Shown here in pieces: positions 1,073-58,087 of a stretch of 64,000 nt of DNA. Source of the stretch: an uncultured bacterium (GTDB taxonomy: Bacteria > Patescibacteriota > Minisyncoccia > UBA6257 > 2-01-FULL-56-20). Both the position numbers and the translations under genes were made by a program. Each line of letters begins with the position of its first letter. The stretch's first letter is position 1. The DNA is taken from contig OY970126.1 in assembly GCA_963705915.1 (NCBI GenBank), positions 10,035 through 74,034 on the forward strand, given 5' to 3'. The notes below the pieces were generated by a model that did no database searches, was not told where the DNA came from, and saw only the letters and a program-made list of their open reading frames with translations.

Positions 1073-1107
1073 TATAATGCGGCGCATGCCCGCGTCCACA
1101 CAACCGA

Positions 1108-2029: not shown

Positions 2030-2038
2030 TAGTTGTAT

Positions 2039-2066: not shown

Positions 2067-2083
2067 TGCTAAAATGAGCCTAT

Positions 2084-3331: not shown

Positions 3332-3339
3332 AAGGCCTA

Positions 3340-3348
3340 TGGTAAAAT
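3340..3348 (+). promoter_or_regulatory. Extended -10 element TGGTAAAAT in the ftsA-ftsZ spacer
   Basis: TGnTAAAAT lies 28 nt upstream of the ftsZ ATG. Confidence 0.35.
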
Positions 3349-3376
3349 TCGATTAAATTCAAAGCTTTTATTCCCG

Positions 3377-10799: not shown

Positions 10800-11285
10800 T
10801 TATTGCAAGGGGGCGGATTTTCGCTTTGCAAGCCACTCGTGGAGGATGAGGCCGATGAGGATAACGTCGAAGACGGTGAGGAGGATGATGAGGAGTGAGT
10901 GGAAATAAACGTAGCTGTAGATCTGATAGAAGGCGAGGGCGCCAAAGACTGCTGCGGCGGCGGGGTAGGCCCAGAGTTTTCCGTAGTATATGGCGATGAG
11001 GGCAGCGATCTTCGCGATGCTGTGAGATACGAGGATGAACGCCCAGAACGATTGCGCCGGGCCGAGGAATGATTGGTAGCCCTGGATGAATAATCCCCAA
11101 AGAAGATCGCGCGGCTGCTCGTTCATTTCTCCGCCGATAAAGAACGCAAGCAAGCCGTTCAAGCTCGCCGCGCTCATCACATACAAAAGGACGCCTCCGA
11201 TGAGTTCAATCACGGTGAGGACCGCTTTGATCCACATCCCTATGTCAAAAAGGAGGTGGTAGCGTTTTTCGGTGAGGGCGGGCAT
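10800..11285 (-). CDS. Polytopic membrane protein (DUF2127-like)
   Basis: Start taken at the MPALTEK Met, which overlaps the upstream stop as ATGA/TAATG. 4-5 TM helices. Confidence 0.5.
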   Translation of the reverse strand: MPALTEKRYHLLFDIGMWIKAVLTVIELIGGVLLYVMSAASLNGLLAFFIGGEMNEQPRDLLWGLFIQGYQSFLGPAQSFWAFILVSHSIAKIAALIAIYYGKLWAYPAAAAVFGALAFYQIYSYVYFHSLLIILLTVFDVILIGLILHEWLAKRKSAPLQ

Positions 11286-18180: not shown

Positions 18181-18230
18181 ATAGAGGAAGGTCGATAATT
18201 ACTACTAGTAATTATAAACGATTCTTTCGT

Positions 18231-26598: not shown

Positions 26599-27293
26599 AT
26601 GAGTGAGCGATTTGTCACATAAGTGGCGTCGGAATCGTTGGCGATATACTTAAAAACGTTTTCGAGCCGCTCCCAATCATTATTCTTTTCAATTTCCCAA
26701 GAATGACCCCAGATATGAAAGACTCCCTTTTCGGTTTTAGCGCGATTAAAAAGATCGATTGCGAGGCCATCCCAATTGAAATAATATTTTAAAAATTTTC
26801 CATTGTGAGAATTTGAGAAAATTGGAGACACATCTGACCAGTGTCGGTAGGCATGTATTGTCGTTGGAAGAGCAAATGGATCGCTGCCAACACTAGTTGC
26901 AAAACGATCTACGGTGCGTCCAAGTGCGAAGCCAGCTTCCTTGACCATGAGTTTATGTTTATCTTCATAGTCGCCACCTGGATAACAAAAACTTGATATC
27001 TCGCGTCCAATGGTATCTTCTAGGTTCTTCTTTGAAAAAGCGATTTCTTCCTTGGCCTCGGCATCATCAATTTTTGATAACCTGGGATGGGTCATGGTAT
27101 GCGCGCCAATTTCAAAATCTTTTGAAAGTTCCACGATTTGATCTTTCCTAAGCCGTTGCTCGAAAGGGATCTCATGATCTGCTGGTGAAATATAAAAAGT
27201 ACCTGCCAAACTATATTTTTTTAACAGTGAGGCAAGTTTTAAGTCGAGGATATGTCCATCGTCCCAGCTCGTTGTAACCAGTATCTTTTTCAT
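26595..27293 (-). CDS. Polysaccharide deacetylase (CE4, NodB homology domain), cytoplasmic
   Basis: NodB motifs TSWDDGH, HTMTHP, YPGG. No signal peptide. Confidence 0.8.
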   Translation of the reverse strand: MKKILVTTSWDDGHILDLKLASLLKKYSLAGTFYISPADHEIPFEQRLRKDQIVELSKDFEIGAHTMTHPRLSKIDDAEAKEEIAFSKKNLEDTIGREISSFCYPGGDYEDKHKLMVKEAGFALGRTVDRFATSVGSDPFALPTTIHAYRHWSDVSPIFSNSHNGKFLKYYFNWDGLAIDLFNRAKTEKGVFHIWGHSWEIEKNNDWERLENVFKYIANDSDATYVTNRSLI

Positions 27294-28453
27294 TAGCTTT
27301 TTTCTTCTATCGCTCTTTTGAATATCGACTCAGTCTTGGCTACGAGGCCATCCCAGCCAAATTCTTTTTCCGCACGGATCGCGCCAGCCTTACCCATTGC
27401 TTCCGCTAATTGCCGGTCGTTATGAAGTTTTTCGATCGCTTCTGCGAGGGCAGGAATATTTTTTGGTTCGACCAGCAGGCCAGTTATGCCATCCTGTATA
27501 GCCTGCGGTATTCCTCCTGCATGTGTGCCGATCACCGGCGTGCCGCAAGCATTCGCTTCGATGAGCACCATCCCAAAGCCCTCTGCGCTTGTCGTTGTCG
27601 GGAGAATAAGTACGTCTGCCCCGGCGTAATATTTTGGCAAATCATCATCACTTACATAGCCAGGCAGCACGATATCGGCAAAGCCCTCTTTCTTCGCATA
27701 TTCTTTATAATATTCTATTGCATCTCCACGGCCTACAGCGATGAGTTGGAGGTCGTAACCTTTCTTTTTGAGAAGAGATGCAGTCGAGATGAGAATGTCG
27801 AGACCTTTGTGAGCGTGCGTTTTGTCCATCTGTGAGACAAATAATATCGTATAGCAGTTCCGATAATTATTTTTGAGCCAAGACGCATCGGCTTCTCTAT
27901 TAAAAAGGTGAAGATCGACACCTGGAGGTACGATATCGATTGGTTTTGGAAGATTCTTAAGATACGGAGAGACGGCTGCATAATATGCTGATGTTGCAAT
28001 CACAGCGTCCGCTTTGCGGAGTGTTTTGTTTGCGCCGAACATATAAGTCATCTTCGCCAACGTTCCCGCGATGAATGTATCTTTTACTAGATCATTATGA
28101 TACGTGACGATAAAAGGAATTGATCCCCGCACTCGTTCTGCAAAGTCGCCCATGAAAGGCCACGGAAGATGAGCGTTGATGACATCTGGCTTTTCCGCCC
28201 GCAAGATTTTTTTAAATTCCTTTCTCCAGGAAATACTCACTGGCGTATTGGAAAGCCGCGCCGTCATTGGGAGTCGATATGTCTTAAGGCCGTTTACATC
28301 TTCTAAGATCGCATGAGAAACGCGCTCGTGATTGAGAGTTATAACCACAATATCGTGCCCGAGTCTTTTTAAACCTAGGGCGATCTGATAGGCGTAATTT
28401 GTTTGTCCGCCCGGCTTTGGGTAGAAATAGGGAACTATAAAGAGTATTTTCAT
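27293..28453 (-). CDS. GT4 family glycosyltransferase
   Basis: N-terminal PYFYPKPGGQ and C-terminal EGFGMVLIEANACGTPVIGT motifs. Confidence 0.85.
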   Translation of the reverse strand: MKILFIVPYFYPKPGGQTNYAYQIALGLKRLGHDIVVITLNHERVSHAILEDVNGLKTYRLPMTARLSNTPVSISWRKEFKKILRAEKPDVINAHLPWPFMGDFAERVRGSIPFIVTYHNDLVKDTFIAGTLAKMTYMFGANKTLRKADAVIATSAYYAAVSPYLKNLPKPIDIVPPGVDLHLFNREADASWLKNNYRNCYTILFVSQMDKTHAHKGLDILISTASLLKKKGYDLQLIAVGRGDAIEYYKEYAKKEGFADIVLPGYVSDDDLPKYYAGADVLILPTTTSAEGFGMVLIEANACGTPVIGTHAGGIPQAIQDGITGLLVEPKNIPALAEAIEKLHNDRQLAEAMGKAGAIRAEKEFGWDGLVAKTESIFKRAIEEKS

Positions 28454-28459
28454 GAAGAT

Positions 28460-30547
28460 CTATTTCCAATACCACCGCTGCCCACTCAGGTAGTCTCGCT
28501 TCACTCGTTTACTGAAAAGCCATTCACTGCGTCCCATCTGGATAGCGATGAAGCGGATCATGTTACGGAAGATCGCTTCGGGGATCAATTTGGCGTTGCC
28601 AGAATTATATAAATCTTTAATTTCCTGAGTGAGAATCTTCAAGCCGCGATTTATAAATGCGGGGAGGTTGGCATTGTGATAAATGCTTCGATATGAAATA
28701 CCGATATCGAAATTACGCTGGAACAACTGTTTCAAAGTGTAAGAGTGTGAGTGCATTACTGTCGCGTCGTTTGCATAGACGATCTTATAGCCGAGTCGTA
28801 ACATTCTTGAAGCCCATTCATAATCTTCGCTCACAATGATCTCGTTCTTATAGGCATGCTCCAGGATCGCACTCTTGCGAACCGCGGAGTTTGCATCAGA
28901 AAAGATGTTATCGCCTTCAGTCCAATTGCCTCCCTCCCAGGTTATTGGTTGGTCGCCATATAAACTCAACTGGAAATGTCGTTCAATGGCTCCATGCTCA
29001 TCTTTTGGAATCTGACGTCCGTAAACACCAACCACTTTAGGATCGGTAAATTTCTGAACAAGATTAGCAAGCCAATCTTCACGCTCTGGCGCAGCGTCGT
29101 GTGAAAGATAAATCACAAACTCTCCCCGGGCGATACGCGCAGCATAATTGCGGGTTTTGCCGTGGCCGAAATCTTCAGGCTTGATTGTGATAATTTGGAA
29201 AGGATATTTTTCGAGAATTTCTCGAGTACCATCAGTTGAGGACGTATCAACACAAAGCACCTCGAAGCTATCGAATTTTTGCTTTGCTATTCCTTCGACG
29301 ACCGGTTTAACGAACCTGATTGAATTGGACGTTAGAAGTACTACGGTCCCCTTGAATAAGTTTTGTTCAGGAACAACTTCCTTCAACGGATACTTATAGA
29401 TGAGGTCGGGACCGTAAACCTGCATAAGTTCTGGGATGATATGGCTCCAGTCATATTTTTCAGCATAACGCACATAAGCCTCTGGACTTTTACGTTTGGC
29501 GAGCGCTGAGTTTATTGCGTTAGCAAAATCTTTTTCGTTAAACTCAGAGAGTTCTCCGTTGCCATTTTTCTGGATTAGCGCTTTTGCTGCATTCTGTGGG
29601 TGATCGATAGTAACCACTGGCAGACCGCAAGCATCGGCTTCGATGACCATAATGCCAAATCCTTCACGCGTTGAAGGAAGTGCAAAAACTTTGGACGCGT
29701 GCATCAAAGCATATAGATCATTATGGTCTTCAAAGAAATCCATAAATGCGACGTTGTTTTCTAGGTATAGGTCCGAAGCAAGCTTTTCTAAATTTTCCTT
29801 CTCGGGTCCTTCGCCGACAATGATGGCTCTTATTCCATCATTTTCTTTCTTGAGTATCTTGATTGCACGCAAAAGGAGATCGACATTTTTATGGGACAAT
29901 AATCGCCCCGCAAAAATTATGTCGGATGTGATTTTCGACGGAGCAATGCTCCGTATCGATTTCACGTCGAGACCGTTTGGTACGGTCACAATTTTGCGCT
30001 TCGTTTCTAATATACGTTGGAGGTCGTAGGTGGTGTGATCTGAGACAGAAATAATAACATTCGGAAGTTTTGCACTGATTTTCTCAATGCGGTAAGCAAT
30101 GGTACCAGCCGGCTTCCCTAGATATTTTTCCCAATACGCTTGTCCCCAGACCTCATGCCATGTCGCAATCATCTTTTTGCGACGAAGAAGGCAAACGAAT
30201 TTTGCTGTAAAAAGAGTTAGCTGAGGAATGTGGTCGACGTCGATTATGTCGAATTCTTCGCCCATGAGCTTTAAGCAATGTAACGAGAAGAGAATTGCTT
30301 GCTTAATGGAACGCCGCTTATCAACGTAAACTGGATAATAAGGACTTATCGCGTAGAATTTTACACCATCTTTTACGAAGGTTGTTTCGCCCTCCCACCA
30401 TCGCATGCAATAAATTGTCACATCGTGTCCCTGAGCGGCGAGGCGAGTGGAGATGTCATAAATACGCTTTTCTTTTCCTCCTTTATTAAAGGGATAGACA
30501 GCGTCGGAAACGATAGCTATTTTCTTTTTGGTTTGTGGGTCGGCCAT
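28460..30547 (-). CDS. Fused GT4 (N-terminal) and GT2 (C-terminal) glycosyltransferase
   Basis: N-terminal half is GT4 (EGFGIMVIEADACGLPVV). C-terminal half is GT2 (VDTSSTDGT, DxD-type YLSHDA). Confidence 0.8.
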   Translation of the reverse strand: MADPQTKKKIAIVSDAVYPFNKGGKEKRIYDISTRLAAQGHDVTIYCMRWWEGETTFVKDGVKFYAISPYYPVYVDKRRSIKQAILFSLHCLKLMGEEFDIIDVDHIPQLTLFTAKFVCLLRRKKMIATWHEVWGQAYWEKYLGKPAGTIAYRIEKISAKLPNVIISVSDHTTYDLQRILETKRKIVTVPNGLDVKSIRSIAPSKITSDIIFAGRLLSHKNVDLLLRAIKILKKENDGIRAIIVGEGPEKENLEKLASDLYLENNVAFMDFFEDHNDLYALMHASKVFALPSTREGFGIMVIEADACGLPVVTIDHPQNAAKALIQKNGNGELSEFNEKDFANAINSALAKRKSPEAYVRYAEKYDWSHIIPELMQVYGPDLIYKYPLKEVVPEQNLFKGTVVLLTSNSIRFVKPVVEGIAKQKFDSFEVLCVDTSSTDGTREILEKYPFQIITIKPEDFGHGKTRNYAARIARGEFVIYLSHDAAPEREDWLANLVQKFTDPKVVGVYGRQIPKDEHGAIERHFQLSLYGDQPITWEGGNWTEGDNIFSDANSAVRKSAILEHAYKNEIIVSEDYEWASRMLRLGYKIVYANDATVMHSHSYTLKQLFQRNFDIGISYRSIYHNANLPAFINRGLKILTQEIKDLYNSGNAKLIPEAIFRNMIRFIAIQMGRSEWLFSKRVKRDYLSGQRWYWK

Positions 30548-44982: not shown

Positions 44983-45059
44983 GGCTTAATTGTAGCACGG
45001 GGGAGCGCGGAAGATTTTTTGCGCATGCCGTCCGAGCGGACGGCACTCATTTTTTTACG

Positions 45060-45221
45060 AACGATGCATAAACCTCAAATAGAACGCTCCGAAGATCAAG
45101 ACGATGCCAATGTTCGCCATCAGCCGTTCCCAGACGTAATTTCTAAAGAATAGGATATCCGCGGCGACTATAACGAGGGCCATGAGCACAATGACGATGG
45201 TTAAAACGTAGGGTGAGTTCA
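45060..45221 (-). CDS. Small membrane protein (53 aa, 2 TM); not in the ORF track
   Basis: ORF MNSPYVLTIVIVLMALVIVAADILFFRNYVWERLMANIGIVLIFGAFYLRFMHRS read on the minus strand. Confidence 0.3.
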
Positions 45222-45265
45222 TTAAAGATACGTGTCGATATACTTGTGACGGCCTTTATATGATT

Positions 45266-48439: not shown

Positions 48440-48484
48440 GATTCGTCAAATCCTCAGCTCCGGCGGGTGGAGGATGTTCGGACC
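48440..48484 (+). repeat. Repeat B copy 1 (GCTCCGGCGGGTGGAGGATGTTCGGACC, 48457-48484) with an adjacent degenerate A-like segment GATTCGTCAAATCCTCA
   Basis: 28-bp direct repeat; see the other copies. Confidence 0.8.
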
Positions 48485-48554
48485 TGGATAGAGCAAGTGG
48501 GGGAGAGTTTTTATGTCCCAAGTTTAGTTAGCCCACCAGGCCGCTCACGATAGA
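48485..48554 (+). repeat. Conserved 70-nt element following repeat B; copy 1 (about 85% identical to 53039-53107)
   Basis: TGGATAGAGCAAGTGGGGGAGAGTTTTTATGTCCCAAGTTTAGTTAGCCCACCAGGCCGCTCACGATAG. Overlaps the SemiSWEET stop codon. Confidence 0.75.
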
Positions 48555-48817
48555 TTGGGAGATCTTTGCGAATATCTCTTTTTTAAAACTAATTGCACAA
48601 TCCCAATGACAAAGCCAGCTGCATTCGCAATCATGACAGGCGTTGCGCCAATAAGCCAACCATAGGTGGTCCAGATAGCGGAATTTATACAGTAGAGGAA
48701 TATCATCCCCAGCGATACGTCGTCCGCGTGTTTTGTCTTCGCCATCTTCACGATCTGCGGGATCATGATCGAGACTCCAACCACCGCGCCTATATAACCG
48801 AGGATATCTGAGAGCAT
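48545..48817 (-). CDS. SemiSWEET / PQ-loop sugar transporter (3 TM)
   Basis: 90 aa, 3 TM helices, PQ motif MIPQIVKMAKTK. Confidence 0.75.
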   Translation of the reverse strand: MLSDILGYIGAVVGVSIMIPQIVKMAKTKHADDVSLGMIFLYCINSAIWTTYGWLIGATPVMIANAAGFVIGIVQLVLKKRYSQRSPNLS

Positions 48818-48835
48818 AATTATATTTTACTATAA

Positions 48836-48880
48836 AAATCCCGATTCGGTATATTCGAATCGGGATTGTGAAAAAAAGGC
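48836..48880. other. Stable hairpin (ATCCCGATTCG / CGAATCGGGAT, 7-nt loop) in the SemiSWEET upstream region
   Basis: 11-bp perfect stem flanked by A-runs on the plus strand. Confidence 0.5.
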
Positions 48881-48927
48881 GAGGTTGATCAAGTCAATTA
48901 TTTATTAAAAAAAGAAAACTCGCACAA

Positions 48928-48960
48928 AAGATAAAATCGTGCGAGCTATAAATTAAAACC
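48928..48960 (-). terminator. Terminator hairpin CTCGCAC..GTGCGAG plus a T-run, for the 48946 gene
   Basis: Hairpin followed by a U-run on the minus strand. Confidence 0.55.
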
Positions 48961-49356
48961 ATATTCCCGAAATTGTTGCAATCTTTTTAAATATTCCAAC
49001 TTACGACATCCGTCGCAACAATCATTTGGATCGCGTCCTTTGTTGATGACGCTACTACGCCTTGTTACAAAATCTCCGCAGCTACAGCGAACAACCCAGA
49101 CCGATCCGGTGCTACCTCCTGCTTCCTTCTCGGAAGCAAACAGGCCCACCACCGTGAATCGTCCAAAAGTTCTGCCGGTCAGGTTCGGCATATTTCTCGG
49201 GACCTTTTTCAAGGGTGGTTGATTTTTCCAATGTCTTTGGGCGATCTTGACGTTGGGTTGTTCCGAAAAACCGGGTTTACTGACCCTCTGAGCGACACGG
49301 TTTACCGGATTGATCACTAAAAGCGTTGATTCGAAAATCCGATTCTTTTTTAGCAT
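48946..49356 (-). CDS. MGE-type Cys-rich small protein (LTGRTFGRFTV...W.VRCSCG...CDGC motif family seen in phage and island ORFs)
   Basis: 136 aa. GRFTVVG ... VWVVRCSCGDFVTRRSS ... CCDGCRK pattern. Confidence 0.4.
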   Translation of the reverse strand: MLKKNRIFESTLLVINPVNRVAQRVSKPGFSEQPNVKIAQRHWKNQPPLKKVPRNMPNLTGRTFGRFTVVGLFASEKEAGGSTGSVWVVRCSCGDFVTRRSSVINKGRDPNDCCDGCRKLEYLKRLQQFREYGFNL

Positions 49357-49378
49357 GCTGATCCTCGCTGTGCAGTAT

Positions 49379-49408
49379 TATAATTTGGAAATTATTAATG
49401 TCAAATAT
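49379..49408 (-). promoter_or_regulatory. Promoter: -35 TTGACA, 16-nt spacer, -10 TATAAT, upstream of the 48946 gene
   Basis: Hexamers read on the minus strand. Confidence 0.4.
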
Positions 49409-49441
49409 ATTTTTTCTATCGCTAATGTTAGCAGCGCTAAT

Positions 49442-49529
49442 GGTTCGAATCCTCGCGCGGGTAATAAAAATTGACCGCATAAAACCTATGAATCTTTAGC
49501 TGCTCCGGCGGGTGGAGGACGTTCGGACC
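49442..49529 (+). repeat. Composite repeat unit 2: A (GGTTCGAATCCTCGCGCGGGTA, 49442-49463), 38-nt spacer, B (49502-49529)
   Basis: The A segment looks like a tRNA T-arm plus acceptor 3' end. The unit ends are imperfect inverted repeats (GGTTCGAA...TTCGGACC). Confidence 0.8.
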
Positions 49530-49530
49530 G

Positions 49531-49857
49531 CTATTCGCGACCCATTTCATTCATAAGAGCCTCAGCCTGTTCAAAGAGATTCTCATCGTTCTCATTATGT
49601 GCGGCAACCCTTGCGGCCTCTAAGCTTGCCCATGCTTCTGTTTGAAATCCTGCCGCTCGATATAATTTTGCTTTTTTAAGGTCAAGCTCAATACCAGCCC
49701 GCGAAGTGTTTAATTCGGCCACCCTTGCTTCTTCAGCTGCGCACCATGCAAGGAGTAGCTCTTTTGACTGCGGGTCATCGATTCCGTTTTCTCGAAGTTT
49801 GGAAATCAACGCCAGCTCATTTTCGGAAAATTCAGATTCGGGAGACTTTTCTATCAT
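49531..49857 (-). CDS. Hypothetical acidic helical protein
   Basis: 108 aa. No motif recognised. Confidence 0.4.
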   Translation of the reverse strand: MIEKSPESEFSENELALISKLRENGIDDPQSKELLLAWCAAEEARVAELNTSRAGIELDLKKAKLYRAAGFQTEAWASLEAARVAAHNENDENLFEQAEALMNEMGRE

Positions 49858-49887
49858 GCCATGAATATATCACATTCTAGCAATATC

Positions 49888-49975
49888 GGTTCGAATCCTC
49901 GCGCGGGTAGCAAAAATTGCCCCCATAAAGCCTATGAATCTTTAGCAGCTCCGGCGGGTGGAGGATGTGAGAACC
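49888..49975 (+). repeat. Composite repeat unit 3: A (49888-49909), 38-nt spacer, B (49948-49975)
   Basis: About 90% identical to unit 2. Confidence 0.8.
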
Positions 49976-49982
49976 TTACAGC

Positions 49983-50016
49983 GAAAGACATTGACTCACA
50001 GTGATCTTATGCTATA
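49983..50016 (+). promoter_or_regulatory. Promoter: -35 TTGACT, 16-nt spacer, -10 TGCTATAAT (extended), then an AAGGAG SD for the 50045 gene
   Basis: Hexamers read on the plus strand. Confidence 0.45.
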
Positions 50017-50044
50017 ATAGTCTTCAGCGGTTAAGGAGATCTAC

Positions 50045-50266
50045 ATGGCATCTTTAGCGCAGCTCTCAGGAGTTGATTCTTTCGAGCGTGTAATCGCATT
50101 GCTTGAGAAAAAAGTTGGCACAACCGAAGCATGTGATCTTATCCTCTCGGATTCGCGGCTCATCGAGGCCGAAGAGGTTGACGGGATATTAGCCGACATC
50201 GATGAGAAGATGTATGGTGAGCCGATCGACTTTCGGGAACCGTGGGAAGATTTGATTTCCTACTAG
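50045..50266 (+). CDS. Hypothetical small acidic protein
   Basis: 73 aa with its own promoter and SD. Confidence 0.45.
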   Translation: MASLAQLSGVDSFERVIALLEKKVGTTEACDLILSDSRLIEAEEVDGILADIDEKMYGEPIDFREPWEDLISY

Positions 50267-50437
50267 TACTAAAGAGATCGACGTTTGCGCAAAGGGTCCG
50301 ATAGAGATATCGAACCCTTTTTATTTTGCTCGCTTGAGCAGACGGCTTGCGAACAGTGGATCGCGGCATTCCGGGCCTACGATTGGGAGAAGGCGATACG
50401 AGATCCGGCTGTAGCGTTAAAACAAATAAGGCAATTA

Positions 50438-51283
50438 CTAGCGCTTGTTTGATGCAGATGCTTTGCTGTAAAACTGGAACTGATTGCCGCCCCGCTTTTT
50501 GGCTTGATAAAGAGCCGTATCGGAAAGCCGGAGCAAGTCCGCCGGTTTCTTCCCATTGAGCGGATATAATGCAACCCCGATGCTGACCGAGGTTTTAATG
50601 ACTCTTTTTTCAATGAGGATTGGAATATCGAAAGCTCGCACGATCTTCTTTGCAATACGAATTGCATTCGCTTTACTTTCTAATTGTTTTGCCAGAACAA
50701 CAAATTCATCTCCTCCAAATCGAGCGGCGATGTCGGAACTTCGTACGGCATGACTCAGGCGATGTGCCACTTCTATCAGTACCAAGTCGCCAAACCGATG
50801 GCCCTCTTCGTCGTTAGTGCGTTTGAAGTTGTTAAAATCGAGATAAAGAATCGCGAGCAACTTTCCTCTTTTGGTCCTCTTGATAGATTCAAGAAAATCT
50901 TCCTCAAAAAAACTGCGGTTTGGCAGTCCCGTCAGAAAATCATGGGTTGAATTGTGGACGGCTAGCGTATGAAGATCGTTTTGCTGAGAAACGTCCCTCA
51001 TGATTTTTGAAAATCCCTGACTTGTTCCGTACTTGTTTCTCGTCGAGGTCAGCACGCCGCTGCTCCAAAATTTAGTTTTATTTTTTCGTACGTATTGCCG
51101 TTCATCCAAATACTTGCCTTCACTCACGGCATTTTTCATATCGGAACCGGGAGTGCCTCGTCGAATGTCTTCTTTTGTGAAAAGAATAGAAAAATCCTTG
51201 CCGATAATTTCTGCTCGCTTATAACCGAAGAGTTTTGCCCCCCCCTGGTCCCAGCTGGTAATCTTGCCTTTCTTGTCGAGCAT
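50438..51283 (-). CDS. PAS-GGDEF diguanylate cyclase; the PAS domain appears N-terminally truncated
   Basis: GGDEF site RFGGDEF. A PAS core (ITSWDQGGAKLFGYKRAEIIG) begins about 8 aa from the start. Confidence 0.8.
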   Translation of the reverse strand: MLDKKGKITSWDQGGAKLFGYKRAEIIGKDFSILFTKEDIRRGTPGSDMKNAVSEGKYLDERQYVRKNKTKFWSSGVLTSTRNKYGTSQGFSKIMRDVSQQNDLHTLAVHNSTHDFLTGLPNRSFFEEDFLESIKRTKRGKLLAILYLDFNNFKRTNDEEGHRFGDLVLIEVAHRLSHAVRSSDIAARFGGDEFVVLAKQLESKANAIRIAKKIVRAFDIPILIEKRVIKTSVSIGVALYPLNGKKPADLLRLSDTALYQAKKRGGNQFQFYSKASASNKR

Positions 51284-51465
51284 AAAAATCGCGTAATCTC
51301 GTATGCTTTCAACGAGGGTGCGATAGTTCTGTTCGGTATTGGTCTTTTCTTTGCGACGTTCGATGCTTATGTCGTAAGTATGGACTTATGGCTAGGAATA
51401 GCAATTATTTCTCTGTTTTGCAGGGGGTTTGTTATATTACGACGATTTCTTTATGAGGTTTTTTA

Positions 51466-51492
51466 TTCCGGCGCGTGGAGGATGGTAGAACC
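51466..51492 (+). repeat. Repeat B copy 4 (TTCCGGCGCGTGGAGGATGGTAGAACC)
   Basis: Ends 6 nt before the stop codon of the ICMT gene. Confidence 0.75.
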
Positions 51493-51497
51493 TGTCC

Positions 51498-52064
51498 TTA
51501 CCAGATAAACGGCAAGAGCCGCTTGGTATGCGCTTGATAGGGTGGATACTGGTCAGGGAAAAGATCGAGCATCGCACGCTCCTCTTTGTGGATACGCCGC
51601 AAACAGAAGATGATGCTTATAATAAACAGCGCAACGGCCACGATACTTCCGGTCAATGCGCCGCCAAAGAGCGCGAGTATCGCGCCCGCATAGATCGGAT
51701 GGCGGACATACGCGTATGCGCCGTTCGTTACGAGCTTATGATCTTCTTTCGGATGTGTTCCCCAGTCGCGTCCTAAGTCGTATCGCCCCCAGATCGCGAA
51801 CGCGACACCGATAACGGTTAACAATGCGCCAACCCAACTGACCGCGAGACCGAAATTGAAGAACGCATATTCAAGGACGAACGCATCGCCCTGTAAATTT
51901 CGAGTAAGAGCATACATCAATAGTGCTAACAAAAAGAGTAGTAGGAGTGGAGGAAGGCTCTTTGAGTGGCTCGAAGCGTCGCGCTTGGCGGTAAAAGCAC
52001 CTACCACCCATACTGTTATAAGCACCAACCAACTTGCGATGATGACATAACCATAGTCGTACAT
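51498..52064 (-). CDS. Isoprenylcysteine carboxyl methyltransferase (ICMT) / phospholipid methyltransferase family membrane protein
   Basis: YAYVRHPIYAG motif. 5 TM helices. The track ORF extends to a TTG at 52106 and would translate the A5 repeat, so the start is uncertain. Confidence 0.7.
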   Translation of the reverse strand: MYDYGYVIIASWLVLITVWVVGAFTAKRDASSHSKSLPPLLLLFLLALLMYALTRNLQGDAFVLEYAFFNFGLAVSWVGALLTVIGVAFAIWGRYDLGRDWGTHPKEDHKLVTNGAYAYVRHPIYAGAILALFGGALTGSIVAVALFIISIIFCLRRIHKEERAMLDLFPDQYPPYQAHTKRLLPFIW

Positions 52065-52080
52065 GTGATCATCATACCGC

Positions 52081-52136
52081 AGTTCGAATCCTCGCGCGGG
52101 TAGCAAAAATTAGGGCGGGTGGAGGATGCGAGAACC
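52081..52136 (+). repeat. Composite repeat unit 5: A (52081-52102), 10-nt spacer, B (52113-52136, 5'-truncated)
   Basis: The spacer between A and B is deleted relative to units 2 and 3. Confidence 0.75.
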
Positions 52137-52207
52137 TGTTATAGGGGAAGATTGATATAACTCGGTGGATATGATAATTTCTTGGATAGATCTGGAGGAG
52201 GTCTCCT

Positions 52208-52471
52208 GTGCCGAAAATTGATGAAAATAAGATCTTAAATACCCTCAGCCATACCGTATGGAAAACTCCGTTCGATATCCGGGTAGAAACCGGGCGATCT
52301 ATATCGCTTAGAGAAATCTATCGTCATCTCGAGGCGTTTGAGGTTCGGCAACTTGTCGAACGTCGAGATAAGCAACTGACAGCGACTCAGCTCGCTCTAC
52401 GGGGTGGCAAGCCCGCGATTGAATTTCGATTACTGCCAGCTGGTGTCCGTCGAAAGGGCGAGGTTTCGTAG
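52208..52471 (+). CDS. Hypothetical protein (possibly winged-helix)
   Basis: GTG start preceded by GGAGGAGG. 87 aa. Confidence 0.4.
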   Translation: MPKIDENKILNTLSHTVWKTPFDIRVETGRSISLREIYRHLEAFEVRQLVERRDKQLTATQLALRGGKPAIEFRLLPAGVRRKGEVS

Positions 52472-52572
52472 AAAATCAAAGGGGTATCGATAGGGATGCC
52501 ATGTCCTGTCAGAGCCTAGTCTCGTCGAAACAATCTCCGGGTCAATCCAAAGTGATTGGCCCTTTTATTTTT

Positions 52573-52600
52573 GCTCCGGCGGGTGGAGGATGTTAGAACC
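52573..52600 (+). repeat. Repeat B copy 6 (GCTCCGGCGGGTGGAGGATGTTAGAACC; matches the consensus)
   Basis: Flanked by convergent terminator hairpins at about 52528-52572 and 52613-52640. Confidence 0.85.
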
Positions 52601-52653
52601 CGGATGAAATAAAAACTGCGCGTCCAAAGCCGCGCAGTTCTCGAAGTAATTCT

Positions 52654-52935
52654 TTACTGTTTAATCCCTAGGGCACCCTTGATCTTTGCAGTGACTTCGT
52701 CTGGTTGAGGCAACGCTTTGGAAATGAGTCCTGGGAGTGCCTGCCCGACCAAATCCAGTAAAACCCTTGTGTCGATTTCATACCAATCCTTGCTGGCGGA
52801 CGAAGCAAGAAATTCGACCTCCTGCGTTTCAAGGATGCGTCGAGCAAATGCCTCTTGTTTCTTGTAGACCCTAAGTTTGCAGTAGCTCAACGCAAAAGCA
52901 AAATAGATTTCAACAGTCGGAAAGTTGCTTTGCAT
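52654..52935 (-). CDS. Hypothetical protein
   Basis: Start taken at MQSNFPT, which has a GGAGG SD. The track ORF extends to 52977. Confidence 0.35.
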   Translation of the reverse strand: MQSNFPTVEIYFAFALSYCKLRVYKKQEAFARRILETQEVEFLASSASKDWYEIDTRVLLDLVGQALPGLISKALPQPDEVTAKIKGALGIKQ

Positions 52936-53010
52936 CGACGCCTCCAGATAATCGCATAACTGAGGACAGAATAACACTGCCCCTTTAAAATTTCAATGAC
53001 GAAACGATCT

Positions 53011-53038
53011 GCTCCGAATCGTGAATAAAGTTAGAACC
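53011..53038 (+). repeat. Repeat B copy 7 (GCTCCGAATCGTGAATAAAGTTAGAACC; ends conserved, middle diverged)
   Basis: Same length and orientation as the consensus. Followed by the conserved 70-nt element. Confidence 0.6.
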
Positions 53039-53107
53039 GAGATAGAGCAGGCGGGGGAGAGTTTTTATGTTCCAAGTTTAGATACCCCACCACTCCGTTC
53101 ACGGTAG
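53039..53107 (+). repeat. Conserved 70-nt element, copy 2
   Basis: GAGATAGAGCAGGCGGGGGAGAGTTTTTATGTTCCAAGTTTAGATACCCCACCACTCCGTTCACGGTAG. Confidence 0.75.
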
Positions 53108-53117
53108 TTTCGAAAGA

Positions 53118-53142
53118 AAAAGCCACCGGTTAAGGTGGCTAA
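53118..53142 (-). terminator. Terminator hairpin GCCACC..GGTGGC plus a T-run after the alphaCTD gene
   Basis: Hairpin followed by TTTTTCTTTCG on the minus strand. Confidence 0.6.
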
Positions 53143-53164
53143 CGAGTCGAGGAGTAGGCGATGG

Positions 53165-53557
53165 TTACCACTTGCGTAACGAAAGATTTCTTTCGGTCAG
53201 AACATCTTTGATCTCTCTCAGTGACTTTCTACCAAGAGTCCTGATTCTCAAGAGGTCTAACTCGGTTTTTCCGATAAGCTCGGTGATCGTGTTGATGTTC
53301 CCATTCTTCAAGCAATTGTAGGAACGATTAGAAATATCCAGCTCTTCGATCTTACCAAGGGCTGAGTCGATCGCTGATTCCCTGGTGAAGGTTAGCTTCA
53401 TTCCGAAGATTGGCTCAAATGGATTTTCGGAAACCACAAATCCTTCATTTCGGAGTGCGATCATCTTGTAGATTGCATCCACCAAGCTTTCGAGCTTCTT
53501 GTCTGGTGCAACCTCTACAACTGTAGTAGTTGTCACAGGAATCTTGTTATCGGTCAT
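53165..53557 (-). CDS. Stand-alone RNA polymerase alpha-subunit C-terminal domain (alphaCTD) protein with an unrelated 70-aa N-terminal region
   Basis: [56 protein letters not shown] aligns to the RpoA alphaCTD (R265-like and G296/K298/S299-like residues present). Strong promoter TTGACG-17-TATAAT plus AAAGGAGAAG SD. Confidence 0.75.
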
Positions 53558-53622
53558 CTCGCTTCTCCTTTTCGATTAGTGCCGTACAGATTATATCATT
53601 ATTTAATTATCTCGTCAAATTT

Positions 53623-53651
53623 GCTCAGGTAGGGCGGGGAATGTTAGGACC
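53623..53651 (+). repeat. Repeat B copy 8 (degenerate: GCTCAGGTAGGGCGGGGAATGTTAGGACC), adjacent to an A-like CTCGTCAAAT
   Basis: The reverse complement of the adjacent A-like segment supplies the TTGACG -35 of the alphaCTD promoter. Confidence 0.55.
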
Positions 53652-53710
53652 TTGCTTTCTTAATTTGGCGCGAGTATAAAGAATTTAGATTTATCGGATG
53701 GGAGACTGAT

Positions 53711-53953
53711 GTGAAACGTATAAATGGAGAAAAGTGGTTGACTCCTACGGAAGCAGGAAAGATATTGGGAGTGAGCAAGAGAACCATCATTCGATGGTGT
53801 GCGGATGGCTCGAATCAGGATCGTAAACCCGAAGACCCTCCGAACCTCAATCCTAGGCGAGGACCAAATCGGCGATTATATTTTCGAGAAAGCCACATCA
53901 AATCTCTCGCAAACCATTACTTTGGGATCGGTCAAAATGAGGGCGGCGCATGA
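53711..53953 (+). CDS. Excisionase/AlpA-like HTH DNA-binding protein
   Basis: 80 aa. LTPTEAGKILGVSKRTIIRWCADG HTH segment. GTG start with a GGGAG SD. Confidence 0.55.
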   Translation: MKRINGEKWLTPTEAGKILGVSKRTIIRWCADGSNQDRKPEDPPNLNPRRGPNRRLYFRESHIKSLANHYFGIGQNEGGA

Positions 53954-54074
53954 TTAAAAGCGACGCCCTCTTTTTTTGCTCCCCACCTCGGACTTGAATC
54001 CCGCCAGTGCAAGCCCCACAAGCATCCCAGAGGATCGTCCGGAGAAGGGGAATGACGCCTCTCGGTCAGGGATC

Positions 54075-54123
54075 AAATGAGACAAATGAGACACTTTTAG
54101 CGTGTCTCGGGACGTGTCTCATT
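54075..54123. promoter_or_regulatory. Operator-like array: two direct AATGAGACA repeats and two inverted GTGTCTC repeats (palindrome AATGAGACAC-N19-GTGTCTCATT)
   Basis: Read from the sequence. Lies immediately upstream of a strong promoter. Confidence 0.55.
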
Positions 54124-54163
54124 TGCTCTTTATATAAGGAAAACAGGCCTTCCGGAGGAGCAT

Positions 54164-54192
54164 TGACAATATACTATAAATCGTTGTATAAT
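54164..54192 (+). promoter_or_regulatory. Sigma70-like promoter: -35 TTGACA, 17-nt spacer, extended -10 TGTATAAT
   Basis: Consensus hexamers about 60 nt upstream of the 54261 gene. A leader hairpin GTTGCGT..ACGCAAC lies in between. Confidence 0.6.
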
Positions 54193-54260
54193 ATACCCAG
54201 ATCATTAAATCCAAGGCGGTTGCGTGCCTACTGAAACGCAACACAAGGAGGGTGACTCCA

Positions 54261-54752
54261 ATGGCAAATATCAGAGTGATGTGGTTCCGTTATGCTGGCG
54301 TTGATAGCATCACGCCCGAGTTGCTGGCGAAGTATTCAGGAACGTACACCATCGCGCGCGATATGGGCGCATGCAAACACGTTGGTCGCGACACCGAGTA
54401 TTACACCTTGGAATTCGCGCCGACGCCGCACGTTGACCTGCTGCTTGTTACTCGACAAATCATCGAGGACATTCGCTATCAAGCGCATCCGATGTCGGGA
54501 TTCGGTCACGTGGAACCGTTCCGTAAGTTCGTGCCTTCCAAAGAGGAAGAGACGGGAATTGATCAGATGAACGAAACGTTGACCGCGCTCGACAACACGC
54601 TCGACAGCCTGAAAGAATCCGAAGGCTGGCGCAAACGTGCGAAAGAGTCAGTAAAGATCTCGGCGCAAACTCTGAAAGAGACCCGTTCGATTTTCGGGAG
54701 CAAAGCGATTGCGAGCGTTCGTCGCAGCCTCGAAGCGATTGCCGCAAATTAG
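54261..54752 (+). CDS. Hypothetical protein
   Basis: Start taken at MANIRV, 9 nt after the AAGGAGG SD. The track ORF starts at GTG 54252. Confidence 0.5.
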   Translation: MANIRVMWFRYAGVDSITPELLAKYSGTYTIARDMGACKHVGRDTEYYTLEFAPTPHVDLLLVTRQIIEDIRYQAHPMSGFGHVEPFRKFVPSKEEETGIDQMNETLTALDNTLDSLKESEGWRKRAKESVKISAQTLKETRSIFGSKAIASVRRSLEAIAAN

Positions 54753-54872
54753 ATTCATACCCTTCATACCGAGGGATCTCGTACAGATCCCTCTCCCACT
54801 AAAGTATTTTCAACGAGAATTCTTTAGCGGGAGAAATCCCGATAGTTCTTCAAAACTTCAGAGGAGGATGTT

Positions 54873-55298
54873 ATGAGATATGTTTTTGCGGTACTGGTGC
54901 TGATCGCCTGCGTCTACACAATCGTGATGTTGCCAAAAGATATGCGTCGCACAGAAGAAAACAAGGCAACCGAGGTTCGCGTGGCAGCCGAAAAGGCCGC
55001 TGCTCAGGAGCAGTTCGAGAAGGACATCATCTCTGCAGAGAAACTAACCCGCCCATCCTGTTCCGAAACGCTCGTCGTGGTCGTTTGGCCTCCGGCGAAT
55101 CTCCCAGAAGCAAAACCACGGGTTGTCATCGCAGGCTACAACGTCGAGGACTTCAACTCGATGAGCGTCAATTTCCACAAAAATCATGACGGCGGATTCG
55201 AATTGAGAGCCAACGGCGGCGAGGTGAGTAACAAACTGCCTGTCGATGGAAAATTCTGCCGGACAGAGGCGGAGTACCAACTCAAACATCCCAGGTAG
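54873..55298 (+). CDS. Membrane-anchored hypothetical protein
   Basis: N-terminal TM helix. AGAGGAGG SD. Confidence 0.5.
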   Translation: MRYVFAVLVLIACVYTIVMLPKDMRRTEENKATEVRVAAEKAAAQEQFEKDIISAEKLTRPSCSETLVVVVWPPANLPEAKPRVVIAGYNVEDFNSMSVNFHKNHDGGFELRANGGEVSNKLPVDGKFCRTEAEYQLKHPR

Positions 55299-55325
55299 AA
55301 CATAATTCTCTAGTAGCCAACAACG

Positions 55326-55367
55326 GCGACCCAATTCATATTTTGTATGGGCCGCCGTTTTCTTTTA
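55326..55367 (+). terminator. Rho-independent terminator (CGGCGACCCA..TGGGCCGCCG plus TTTTCTTTT)
   Basis: Hairpin and U-run directly before B copy 9. Confidence 0.65.
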
Positions 55368-55395
55368 CTCCGGCGAGTGGAGGATGTTAGAACCT
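55368..55395 (+). repeat. Repeat B copy 9 (ACTCCGGCGAGTGGAGGATGTTAGAACC)
   Basis: Last copy. Lies between convergent genes. Confidence 0.8.
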
Positions 55396-55482
55396 ATTAT
55401 GTGAAAATAGAAAAATGTCCAGAAATAGTGAGGGCCACGCGATCTTTGGCGTGGCCCCTGTGGTTAATTGGCTATGAAACAA

Positions 55483-56322
55483 CTACTCGGAGGAGGGGCG
55501 CATCACCCAGATTTCTTGTGTCTGGATTTCTTCCGCAACCTCTGAACTAAAAACTGTGCAGTGGATACCCGGCGTGAAATCGATCTGCCGATGCCTTTCG
55601 ACACGAAAGCCAACGTTCTCAAAAAAATGCTGTGCATCTTGGAAATCTTCGAAAAGGTTGTCGTTCATGTTGCGTCCAGTCGTCGTCGCGATTTGCTTCT
55701 GCGCTGGACTACTCGCCATCCTTTTCTCATGATGCTCTTTGATAAGAATGTCTGGAGTGATCCAAACCCCCGAAAAAAGGTTGAGTACCCCAGCAATGCT
55801 TCCGGCCAACTCCCGTTTTTCGTCATTGTTGAGGTACGGCATAAGACCTTCGTGAATGATGGCAACGGGCGCTGTTTTGAAACGAGCAGTAGCCGATTGT
55901 AGTTCGCCCTGCTCCAAGGCGTTAGCGGAAGCGAAGTGGTAGTTCGGCCGCTTCTTTGTTCCGAGCAGTTCCGAAACGATCTCCTGTTTTTCTGCGAGCA
56001 TTCCCGGTAGGTCGGTTTCGACAAATGTGATCTCTGGATTTTCAGTCAAGATCAACCCACGAGGAGAAAGTCCCGAAGCAATTTCAAGCACTTGATTAAC
56101 CCCGACGTGAGGCAGGATGCCGCTCAATGATTTGAAGCGTAGTTCTGCGAGAGGTGCCCTTTTGAGCGCCGCTTCCATGTTGCCGTTGAAGTACGTTTTT
56201 GCGATCGCTTCGGCGTCGCACATGGTGGCGATTTCTCGAGAGTAGGGGATGTCCGACATTGCCCGCATGAAAGCCACGAGCTTTGCGGTTGGACTGATTT
56301 GATGAAAATCGTGTTCGTTCAT
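55483..56322 (-). CDS. Class I SAM-dependent methyltransferase (leucine carboxyl / TcmP-like family)
   Basis: Start taken at MNEHDF, which has a GGAGAA SD. ISPTAKLVAFMRA N-terminal family signature. Confidence 0.65.
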   Translation of the reverse strand: MNEHDFHQISPTAKLVAFMRAMSDIPYSREIATMCDAEAIAKTYFNGNMEAALKRAPLAELRFKSLSGILPHVGVNQVLEIASGLSPRGLILTENPEITFVETDLPGMLAEKQEIVSELLGTKKRPNYHFASANALEQGELQSATARFKTAPVAIIHEGLMPYLNNDEKRELAGSIAGVLNLFSGVWITPDILIKEHHEKRMASSPAQKQIATTTGRNMNDNLFEDFQDAQHFFENVGFRVERHRQIDFTPGIHCTVFSSEVAEEIQTQEIWVMRPSSE

Positions 56323-56369
56323 TTGTTCTCCAGTTAGTGGGATGAGTTGGATGAATGATAACATCCAAA

Positions 56370-56398
56370 ATTGACAAATCGGTTCTGCGGATGTTATA
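56370..56398 (+). promoter_or_regulatory. Promoter: -35 TTGACA, 17-nt spacer, -10 TTATAA(C), for the 56457 gene
   Basis: Hexamers in the divergent intergenic region. Confidence 0.45.
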
Positions 56399-56456
56399 AC
56401 ATAGCCAGCAGTTAGCGTCAATTCAATCGTGGCAGGAAGCCACAAGGAGATGCGTT

Positions 56457-57478: not shown

Positions 57479-58087
57479 TTAGATTTTTAGCCCCAGCTTT
57501 TTGAGGTCGGATTTAAGCTGTTCGTTGTTCTTGAAAAGAATCGGCGCGTAACCGATCTCCGCTGCTTTTTCCAAACTTTTGGCAGAATCGTCCACGAAGA
57601 CGACTTCTTTAGGGCGAACGTCCAGCTTCTTGAATGCAACCTCGAATGCCTCGCGGTGCGGTTTCTGATGGCCGATTTCGCCGGAGACCACAATCTCGTC
57701 CACGAGCTTTGCTATACCTTCGTTTTCCAATCGAGTCCGCAGTTCTGAGGTCGCATTGCTCAAAATGGCGACTTTCAATCCCTGGTTGCGCAGCACCGAA
57801 AACAGAGACAGGAGATCGGTGTTGATCCTGTTTCCCGCGCTATAGGTTTGTATAAATGTTCTGATGCGATCTTTTGTTGCCGCACTATCATCAAATACCC
57901 GCACGACTTCAATGATCATATCTTCCCATCTCACGTTGGTCACATTCGAAAGATGATTGTGTTCGTAATAAGCCTGTTGAAATTTATCGAACGGAACGTC
58001 GAGCATCCGGGCGATCTGCCTCAATATGTTCTCGCCGTCGTTTAACTGGATGACGCCGCCAAAATCAAAAATTACAGCTTTGATCAT
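57479..58087 (-). CDS. HAD-superfamily hydrolase (subfamily IA)
   Basis: Motif I VIFDFGGV, motif II ILSNAT and motif IV FVDDS. Confidence 0.8.
   Translation of the reverse strand: MIKAVIFDFGGVIQLNDGENILRQIARMLDVPFDKFQQAYYEHNHLSNVTNVRWEDMIIEVVRVFDDSAATKDRIRTFIQTYSAGNRINTDLLSLFSVLRNQGLKVAILSNATSELRTRLENEGIAKLVDEIVVSGEIGHQKPHREAFEVAFKKLDVRPKEVVFVDDSAKSLEKAAEIGYAPILFKNNEQLKSDLKKLGLKI

Follow-up and report, generated by a model that had tools for sequence, protein, structure and literature searches.

The question raised by this locus is what kind of element places a sequence resembling the end of a tRNA, three times over, in a stretch of chromosome that carries no tRNA. The window, by which we mean the whole 64-kb stretch of DNA analyzed, has no tRNA gene according to ARAGORN, and over 47.5-56.5 kb Rfam gave no tRNA match at E<=5, its only hits on the array described below being chance matches, none of them on the repeats. 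A sequence-only reading had likewise seen no full cloverleaf and had proposed composite units of about 88 bp that could be tRNA-end fragments, integron attC sites, or MITE-like palindromes. We interpret the 88-bp elements as long-form junctions in a chromosomal array of att-type sites, an array which would have arisen by serial site-specific insertion of cassettes, and put the probability of this reading at roughly 0.6. It draws on the anatomy of the array, its homology with tRNA-Asn, synteny and cassette modularity in related genomes, and the comparison of one occupied tRNA end with empty ones.

A co-oriented repeat array in the window

The tRNA-like sequence, block A (GGTTCGAATCCTCGCGCGGGTA), is found exactly at 49442-49463 (A1) and 49888-49909 (A2) and with one mismatch at 52081-52102 (A3), always on the + strand; three copies are seen where shuffles of the window predict 0.02 matches. 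Its layout is precisely that of a tRNA 3' part, with GG followed by the 7-nt T-loop TTCGAAT, the 5-nt T-stem strand CCTCG, the 7-nt acceptor strand CGCGGGT, and the discriminator A, and the motif GGTTCRANTCC occurs twice in the window, both times within A. The canonical T-loop and acceptor-like end noted earlier from the sequence are thereby borne out. A second block, B, lies downstream of every A (3/3), giving units at 49442-49529 (88 nt), 49888-49975 (88 nt), and 52081-52136 (56 nt). All three proposed composites are thus A-B units, but the third is missing the bulk of its spacer along with the initial GCTCC of B (5 nt) and is therefore 56 nt long, not 88. The imperfect inverted termini described for these units are also present, as 12 of 15 matching positions with a 2-nt gap over the outer 13-15 nt (P ~0.02-0.12 per unit against shuffles), whereas the reported identity of about 75% between A and the reverse complement of B, rc(B), does not extend over the whole of A.

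B, not A, is the constant and primary unit of the family; A is a clade-restricted accessory, and the 88-bp elements are long versions of a repeat of ~34 bp. This reverses the earlier suggestion that solo B copies are half-sites or scars of the composite. Read on the minus strand, B is CAGGTTCTAACATCCTCCACCCGCCGGAGC, with the consensus CAGGTTCTnACrTCsTCCAsnCGCCGGAGC. The window has seven strong copies, with 3' ends at 48484, 49529, 49975, 51492, 52136, 52600, and 55394, and two degenerate ones, every one of them on the + strand, and its solo copies outnumber those first reported.

The whole array spans 48440-55397 and comprises nine co-oriented B units (three with an upstream A) and 13 short genes. 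The unit most distal in the tRNA sense is the B at 48457-48484 (GCTCCGGCGGGTGGAGGATGTTCGGACC, E=1.7e-8), which is followed by a RibD_C gene and preceded at 48440-48455 by a degenerate A-like stretch, GATTCGTCAAATCCTC. Composite 1 opens with A1, an inverted pseudo tRNA-Asn 3' end (T-loop, T-stem 3' strand, and acceptor 3' strand) of apparent attB-type geometry, and continues through a 38-nt spacer (49464-49501, + strand) into its B at 49502-49529, whose 3' edge abuts the stop codon of a minus-strand gene (49531-49857). The B of composite 2 lies at 49948-49975 (E=6e-10) and is followed by a solo B at 51465-51492 (ATTCCGGCGCGTGGAGGATGGTAGAACC). In the 56-nt composite, the shortened B occupies 52114-52136. 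The solo B at 52573-52600 has the family consensus and comes after a terminator-like hairpin (52539-52562); beyond it lie the two degenerate copies, GCTCCGAATCGTGAATAAAGTTAGAACC at 53011-53038, whose right-hand 81 nt are 83% identical to the sequence right of the B at 48457-48484, and GCTCAGGTAGGGCGGGGAATGTTAGGACC at 53623-53651. The most proximal unit in the tRNA sense, a solo B at 55367-55394, lies ~90 nt past the stop codon of an LCM-methyltransferase gene on the minus strand (55483-56445).

Each interval between B units holds one to three short genes, which are functionally unrelated and lie on either strand. Their products include a SWEET/PQ-loop protein, a PAS-GGDEF protein, an ICMT-family methyltransferase, a protein consisting only of the RpoA C-terminal domain, an HTH_17 protein, and several orphans. 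The remainder of the window is ordinary chromosome, with FtsA/FtsZ, RmuC, glycosyltransferases, and a GGDEF-EAL protein, and no recombinase is found among the window's open reading frames of >=180 amino acids.

Relationship of the repeats to the 3' end of tRNA-Asn

When the end of tRNA-Asn(GTT) is aligned with rc(B), as CAGGTTCGA--GTCCT---GGCGCCGGAGC, three blocks are identical. They are bounded by the start of the T-stem and by one base past the discriminator, and rc(B) has 5 extra nucleotides in between. Both rc(B) (P ~0.005) and A (P<0.0005) align to positions 48/50-73 of tRNA-Asn genes from CPR bacteria (Patescibacteria), and the B and A profiles weakly match real tRNA-Asn ends on the same strand and in the same register as the array. 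The homology continues beyond the gene, as a copy of the ~35-nt tRNA trailer (ACCTAGTAAAAGTATCGGGGAGACCGAGAGG) follows many rc(B) units. On the strength of this alignment, B can be described as a descendant of the tRNA-Asn 3' end, running from the start of the T-arm through the acceptor 3' strand to the discriminator and one further base, with 5 bp added between. The proposal that these are tRNA 3'-end fragments of the kind duplicated at att sites is supported by these results.

Several other identities for B were considered and set aside. A forward-sense match of B to the 5' part of a tRNA is not significant, and a permuted or split tRNA does not fit, the acceptor strands of A and B not being complementary as 5' and 3' halves. 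As a Xer/dif site, B lacks a dyad; as a promoter (TTGCTC-17-TAGAAC), it lacks the final T and, in most units, a gene downstream that it could transcribe. The idea that rc(B) forms an RNA hairpin or terminator was rejected because the stem is not conserved between clades.

A tRNA-Asn(GTT) gene, antisense to B as written, lies just past the proximal end of the array in loci L027, L005/L025, and L032/L033. The gene is interrupted in the anticodon loop in L030, L031, L012, L039, and the window's own genome (L038), and these copies were missed by ARAGORN because of the interruption. In L030 and L031, where both ends could be read, the insertion measures ~215-250 nt, and its match in L030 to a group I intron model falls below threshold (E=9.5e-4). 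The window's array is not beside this gene: its genome's tRNA-Asn lies elsewhere, the 5' exon being present on a 1.4-kb contig, and the array in L015 is likewise away from its own genome's tRNA-Asn locus. The B core, CGCCGGAGC, differs at two of nine positions from the tRNA end of the window's own clade, CCGCGGAGC. A tRNA ending exactly as A does had also been predicted; the exact 21-mer is present in 0 of 185,579 species-representative genomes, so no tRNA with precisely that end was found, and the nearest is tRNA-Asn.

Arrays and cassettes in related genomes

A degenerate B pattern retrieved 12 metagenome contigs and, from species-representative genomes, Patescibacteria MAGs that include Minisyncoccia SPRUCE_501, a Candidatus Paceibacterota bacterium, and three genomes of 0.89-0.91 Mb (two of them complete chromosomes). 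Matches of the degenerate pattern in high-GC genomes (L014, L016, L018, L019, L022-24, L026, and L029) were judged to be due to chance. With a B profile, 58 strong units are recognized in 15 loci (one unit being common to overlapping loci), and within each locus the orientation is 100% uniform. The median spacing of these units is 729 bp (range, 97-3378), and the densest arrays have up to 12 or more units at ~0.7-kb intervals. Only 16/58 units have the stop codon of an oppositely oriented gene close to where rc(B) starts, in the interval from -15 to +30 nt, against 8.4% for random positions. Degenerate copies are found at the distal array ends in L020 and L021 as well. The non-tRNA middle of B (TnACrTCsTCCAs) is conserved across genomes whose cassettes differ entirely, and the half of the unit beyond GGAGC shows no conservation.

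Searches of IMG/VR with the A and B patterns gave no true match on a viral contig, the single candidate (L013) being rejected as a family member, so no free attP donor is known. The window's own genome belongs to a Paceibacteria-like CPR bacterium; its ABC-F protein has a 100% identical match on an 827-kb contig, and the relatives that bear names fall in Patescibacteria, Paceibacterota, Liptonbacteria, and Wolfebacteria. The ABC-F neighborhoods of relatives are not syntenic with the window and have no B units.

The position of the arrays becomes clear from synteny. At least five CPR genomes (L027, L030, L032, L012, and L005/L025) share a block of pentose-phosphate pathway genes, GAPDH, DUF192, a lamin-tail-domain protein, a gene of ~205 amino acids, and tRNA-Asn. 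In four of the five, a variable set of genes follows the tRNA, most of them followed in turn by rc(B) in the tRNA sense; in the fifth, a single rc(B) comes after two genes. The arrays of relatives therefore do coincide with a tRNA boundary, as had been suspected; in at least five of these CPR genomes they begin immediately past an intact tRNA-Asn gene. What is found past the tRNA differs completely from genome to genome, for instance GrpB, APH plus NUDIX, and a Na/Ca exchanger in L032 and an ars-like module and GalT in L030.

Individual cassettes can nevertheless be traced between arrays, and the homology blocks common to different arrays break within 0-10 nt of B edges. Thus, L017 4345-5086 matches L030 14954-15698 and ends 0-3 nt from B edges in both, while L021 2900-4332 matches L030 15670-17087 with ends at 2, 2, and -1 nt from B edges. 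A LiaF-TM cassette (L030 17127-17518, ends at 10 and -5 nt) recurs in L020 and L021 among different neighbors, and L021 has two extra genes where L030 has just a B unit. As the shared unit spans from the end of one core to the end of the next in two of three informative cases, the cassette ends with its B arm.

A large serine recombinase at the tRNA-Asn locus

In one relative, the tRNA end is occupied by an element with its own recombinase. L031 has, directly after tRNA-Asn, a gene for a 539-amino-acid large serine recombinase (LSR) that overlaps the 3' exon of the tRNA; the domains of the protein are Resolvase, Recombinase, and Zn_ribbon_recom, and its relatives include SPbeta SprA/YokA and the A118 integrase. 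At its distal end, ~9.6 kb away, the element reads CAGGTTCG-TACAGCCACTAAGC (15 nt)-CGCCGGAGC and passes into the native tRNA trailer. When the occupied end in L031 is compared with the unoccupied tRNA ends of L027 and L030, attL, attR, and attB share just the core. A second LSR is found near the same locus in L039, a relative within the window's clade whose genome also holds L015. The window, over its open reading frames of >=180 amino acids, and the cassette arrays proper have none. There is no recombinase within 8-10 kb of most arrays and no tyrosine recombinase beside the arrays of L005, L006, L012, L015, L017, L020, L021, L028, L030, and L032.

The distance from the outer motif CAGGTTC to the core is 9 nt in the tRNA, 14 nt in rc(B), and 15 nt in the arm of the L031 element. 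The attP and attB half-sites of serine integrases have the same outer motif for the zinc-ribbon domain, which lies 5 bp nearer the crossover in attB (PMC3783163). The 5-bp offset between the tRNA arm and the B arm is, as far as the alignment goes, the attP/attB geometry of LSRs. Should the crossover fall at CGCC|GG, the arms would be 20 and 25 nt, which are the canonical values, and we infer that an LSR could bind and cleave at both the B and the tRNA sites. No dyad symmetry of the LSR type can be demonstrated by eye in the full sites.

It can therefore be hypothesized that small pieces of DNA carrying one to three genes, as a rule together with promoters for them, would be inserted one after another by a site-specific recombinase acting in trans. 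Each insertion would leave behind one P-type arm and the core, and the outcome would be a co-oriented array in which every cassette ends in such a unit. The likeliest enzyme would be an LSR of the CcrB/DsiB/SprA kind, as in the tandem arrays of SCC and ssrA islands. In the relatives, such arrays would begin at the tRNA-Asn gene, and the one in the window genome would occupy a secondary locus. Weighing against this reading are the lack of a recombinase in the window and near most arrays, the absence of a tRNA gene beside the window's array, the two mismatches in the core, the variable half past GGAGC, the minority of units close to a stop codon, and the failure to find A or B sites on viral contigs. 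A broader form of this idea, which we regard as possible and advance tentatively, is that CPR/Paceibacteria possess a platform for gene capture resembling integrons but of separate evolutionary origin. Cassettes of one gene, ending in a 34-bp, tRNA-Asn-derived P-type arm for a serine recombinase, would be inserted, excised, and reshuffled in trans at tRNA-Asn and at secondary sites, with an inverted, attB-like A permitting insertion in either orientation.

The composite units and block A

A-type blocks proper are confined to the window's clade, where the window and L015 have three each (one of those in L015 being partial) and L009 has one, so that the bearers of A make up 7 of ~58 units. In all three loci, A shares the strand of B and has a B as its next downstream neighbor, at a distance of 11-38 nt. 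The 38-nt spacer is conserved in four composites (window units 1 and 2, L015, and L009), the flanks of which are unrelated. In contrast to the B arm, the arm of A measures 9 nt, the attB-type length, and A is inverted relative to rc(B).

Comparison of GGTTCGAATCCTCG-CGCGG-GTAGCAAAAA with GGTTCGAGTCCTGGCCGCGG-AGC... identifies A, to judge by the match, as an inverted and less diverged copy of the clade's tRNA-Asn end and trailer, which is why A and B can be paired on paper as a three-stem, 19-bp hairpin. A is probably a second att-like site in the opposite orientation, tail-to-tail with B. The composite might then consist of two convergent att-like sites arranged tail-to-tail, which is our best reading of it, held with low confidence. 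The site centers are 47 nt apart, approximately the sum of two right half-sites, and, read on the minus strand, the B part of the 56-nt unit is truncated precisely at the CGCC| position within the core.

The role of A we infer indirectly; A-type sites may take cassettes inserted the other way round. Window genes on the + strand lie downstream of A2 and A3, at 50045 and 52208, and L030 has its minus-strand ars-like module downstream of an inverted A-like block (13147-13165). A1 and the copies of A in L015, however, show no clear fit to such a pattern.

Alternative explanations

Some of what is described above could also be accommodated without a dedicated recombinase. B might be a conserved intergenic element, such as an operator or another protein-binding or regulatory site, or a homology handle, with cassettes swapped by homologous recombination. 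This is the mode of exchange of the PeSL "mobile regulatory cassettes" of T4-type phages, which recombine between their copies. Most arrays have no linked recombinase, a 34-nt repeat of ~85-90% identity could support RecA-mediated exchange, and exchange at B edges is equally expected from homologous recombination between repeats. Strong sigma-70-like promoters (n=4) and several terminator-like hairpins also adjoin units; however, none is part of the conserved block, their strand and their distance from it vary, and in total they are no more numerous than in shuffles. The orientation of the units is constant whatever that of the genes, and a passive repeat leaves unexplained the homology with the tRNA-Asn end and trailer, the start of arrays at the tRNA, the exact 5-bp arm offset, and the occupied end in L031 against the empty ones in L027 and L030. 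We consider this explanation unlikely, though it deserves to be kept in mind. Somewhat harder to sustain is the possibility that the units are inert scars, that is, decaying direct repeats of integrase-bearing islands or prophages which once occupied tRNA-Asn and then shrank by deletion until one or two genes were left, with no present function. An origin from a tRNA end with no integrase left, the degenerate copies in the window (53011 and 53623) and at the distal array ends of L020 and L021, and the location of the window's array away from a tRNA would all suit such a history. Against it, the non-tRNA middle of B is conserved despite unrelated cassettes, which argues for selection or ongoing spread and not decay, arrays reach up to 12 or more regularly spaced units, and the same cassettes appear in different contexts.

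The two identities suggested from the sequence alone, an attC-like site and a MITE-like palindrome, fare less well. In the former, the arrays would be integron-type attC sites without an integrase (CALINs), each A...B unit acting as a single-stranded DNA hairpin recombined by the tyrosine recombinase IntI. Such a site has two inverted and mutually complementary 7-bp cores, R'' (RYYYAAC) and R' (GTTRRRY), within a stable single-stranded hairpin of R box, spacer, and L box with extrahelical bases, and a complete integron has intI, attI, and the promoter Pc adjoining the array. The co-oriented array of mostly single-gene units with unrelated functions is reminiscent of this arrangement, stop codons often adjoin the unit, the composites can be drawn as the 19-bp hairpin mentioned above, and the 3' end of B, GTTAGAA, agrees with GTTRRRY at 6/7 positions. 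The resemblance does not go further. Folds of either strand are no better than those of shuffles (z ~ -1), a complementary partner arm is absent from the 25 B copies tested, and A accompanies only a minority of units. The composites pair as GGTTC/GAACC and not as RYYYAAC/GTTRRRY, which leaves GTT in an internal loop, and there is no complementary R''; five composite sequences yield one compensatory pair. Neither IntI nor any other tyrosine recombinase is found among the window's open reading frames of >=180 amino acids or beside the arrays named above, and the units are homologous to a tRNA end and their arrays start at a tRNA gene, neither of which is known of attC sites. We regard an attC identity as very improbable. 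A non-autonomous, MITE-like transposon with the A and B ends as terminal inverted repeats is more doubtful still and has hardly any claim on the data. The imperfectly inverted 13-15-nt termini, the conservation of a ~90-nt composite as a unit in L015 and L009 with different flanks, and the 2.1-kb module of L030 between inverted T-arm-like sequences would fit it. Yet all window copies are co-oriented within one 7-kb stretch of the 64 kb, where a MITE would have copies scattered in both orientations, target-site duplications are absent, most units have a single "end," and no transposase is associated, the one IS481 copy in L017 being unrelated.

Comparison with known systems

To return to an array of att-type sites built by serial insertion, serine recombinases are known to produce tandem accretion at tRNA-like genes. 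Among described systems, the nearest analogue is the ssrA-island array of Dehalococcoides, in which tandem islands downstream of ssrA are bounded by direct repeats of the ssrA 3' end and an adjacent conserved motif that is not part of ssrA (PMC3146451). These islands insert in the T-loop, and attL is overlapped by the gene for a CcrB-like serine recombinase; roughly half of them have no integration module and are thought to have been mobilized in trans or by accretion (PMC3146451). The present arrays look like a miniaturized version. They too are composed of tandem co-oriented units downstream of a tRNA-like gene and in the same sense (L027, L030, L032, L012, and L005/L025), with a repeat in which the gene's 3' end is joined to a neighboring conserved motif that cannot be aligned to it. 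Insertion is in or near the segment from the T-loop to the 3' end, the LSR gene of L031, which lies outside the cassette arrays proper, overlaps attL in the same way, and many units lack an integration module. The differences lie in the target, which here is tRNA-Asn, often intron-containing, and in scale, with units of median 0.7 kb and mostly one gene against islands of ~10-20 kb and much denser repeats, up to 12 or more per array. Some arrays here, the window's among them, sit at secondary loci that lack the target gene, one clade has the inverted second site A, and the host is a CPR genome of ~0.8-0.9 Mb.

SCCmec and related SCC elements, moved by the LSRs CcrAB or CcrC at the 3' end of rlmH, similarly form tandem cassettes at a conserved gene end bordered by direct repeats that copy that end. 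Their target is protein coding, their cassettes measure tens of kilobases, and they show no tRNA mimicry. SCC cassettes without ccr genes can be moved by recombinases in trans (PMC3146451). With integrons, the arrays have in common co-oriented short recombination sites, each after a small and unrelated gene cassette, and with CALINs the lack of an adjacent integrase. They differ in having no attC hairpin, R''/R' cores, or IntI, in sites derived from a tRNA end, and in cassettes that commonly have their own promoters and lie in either orientation. Classical tRNA islands with tyrosine integrases, and CIMEs/IMEs, also have direct repeats of a tRNA 3' end at their boundaries, and tRNA-Asn is a well-known island hotspot, for example in the asn tDNAs of Klebsiella (PMC4891358). 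Classical islands, however, are large and integrase-bearing and have exact tRNA-end repeats, whereas in the present arrays the units are single genes and the repeat, expanded by 5 conserved bp, has a middle that is not tRNA sequence.

We found no published account of dense and conserved single-gene cassette arrays like these in CPR bacteria, nor anything relevant on integron-like arrays in them. With minimal genomes of ~0.8-0.9 Mb, CPR bacteria are generally credited with limited machinery for gene exchange. A dense single-gene array at, or derived from, tRNA-Asn would amount to a dedicated hotspot for accessory genes in this group, functionally parallel to integrons and SCC islands yet built of tRNA-derived sites with the geometry of serine recombinases. 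Reading the locus in this way would also explain why automated tools (tRNA finders, Rfam, and integron logic) are blind to it. The consensus CAGGTTCTnACrTCsTCCAsnCGCCGGAGC could serve as a signature for finding the flexible gene pool of Paceibacteria in metagenomes, and the compact att sites would form a testable set for new LSRs.

Two genes just outside the window's array, a HAD gene at 57479-58087 and one for a 55-amino-acid membrane protein at 45055-45222, have homologs elsewhere that are B-bracketed cassettes.

Split tRNA-Asn genes and an insertion behind the trailer

In several of these CPR genomes, that of the window included, the anticodon loop of tRNA-Asn(GTT) is interrupted between CTGT and TAAGGAG, and because the genes are split at this point they were missed by ARAGORN. 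The split genes lie at 10698-10979 in L030, at about 10724-11031 in L031, at about 6945-7227 in L012 and at about 10727-11019 in L039, all tRNA-Asn loci of related genomes, and from about 1172 in L038, the 1.4-kb contig that carries the 5' exon in the window's own genome. At the two loci for which both ends of the insertion could be read, L030 and L031, its length is approximately 215 to 250 nt. The insertion gives a full-length, sub-threshold match to the Rfam group I intron model RF00028 (22.6 bits, E=9.5e-4).

Directly behind the trailer that follows tRNA-Asn in L030, a 2.1-kb module encoding a rhodanese, an ArsP permease, a thioredoxin and an HTH_5 protein is inserted. The module is bordered by inverted T-arm-like sequences at 11041-11058 and 13147-13165 (GTTTCGAGTCCTTGAC ... 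GTCCAGGATTCGAACC) and is followed by a second copy of the trailer.

Cassette features of the window array

Two cassettes of the window array have an 81-nt segment in common, with 83% identity between 48476-48556 and 53030-53110. Both copies are located in the 3' regions of their cassettes (SWEET and RpoA-CTD) and directly to the right of a B unit, which is just ahead of B in the tRNA sense, and the segment may represent an extended arm common to the two. A free-standing RNA polymerase alpha C-terminal domain is unusual; here it is the sole domain (PF03118, E=1e-20) of a 130-aa cassette protein (53165-53557, minus strand), whose N-terminal part is unrelated sequence. Also within the array, an 80-aa HTH_17 (excisionase/MerR-like) protein (53711-53953, plus strand) could be a directionality factor, or could merely be cargo.

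Other features of the window and its relatives

In a B array of OY970175.1 (L017), one spacer contains an IS481-family transposase (rve, HTH_28; 1000-1950, minus strand). A haem-copper oxidase cluster (COX1, COX3, COX4_pro, COX_ARM and UbiA), unexpected in a CPR genome of approximately 0.9 Mb, is found at 14170-18838 of L034, from a relative of the window's genome and on the same 913,682-bp contig as the B array L015. Within the window, 18000-30000 has a G+C content of 0.41 to 0.44, against 0.50 to 0.55 in its flanks, and covers a glycosyltransferase and polysaccharide gene cluster, possibly a surface-polysaccharide island gained horizontally. Shortly 3' of ftsZ, at 4880-4963, a 21-nt unit resembling GATGAGTTTCGCGGAAAAGTA occurs in three to four tandem copies.
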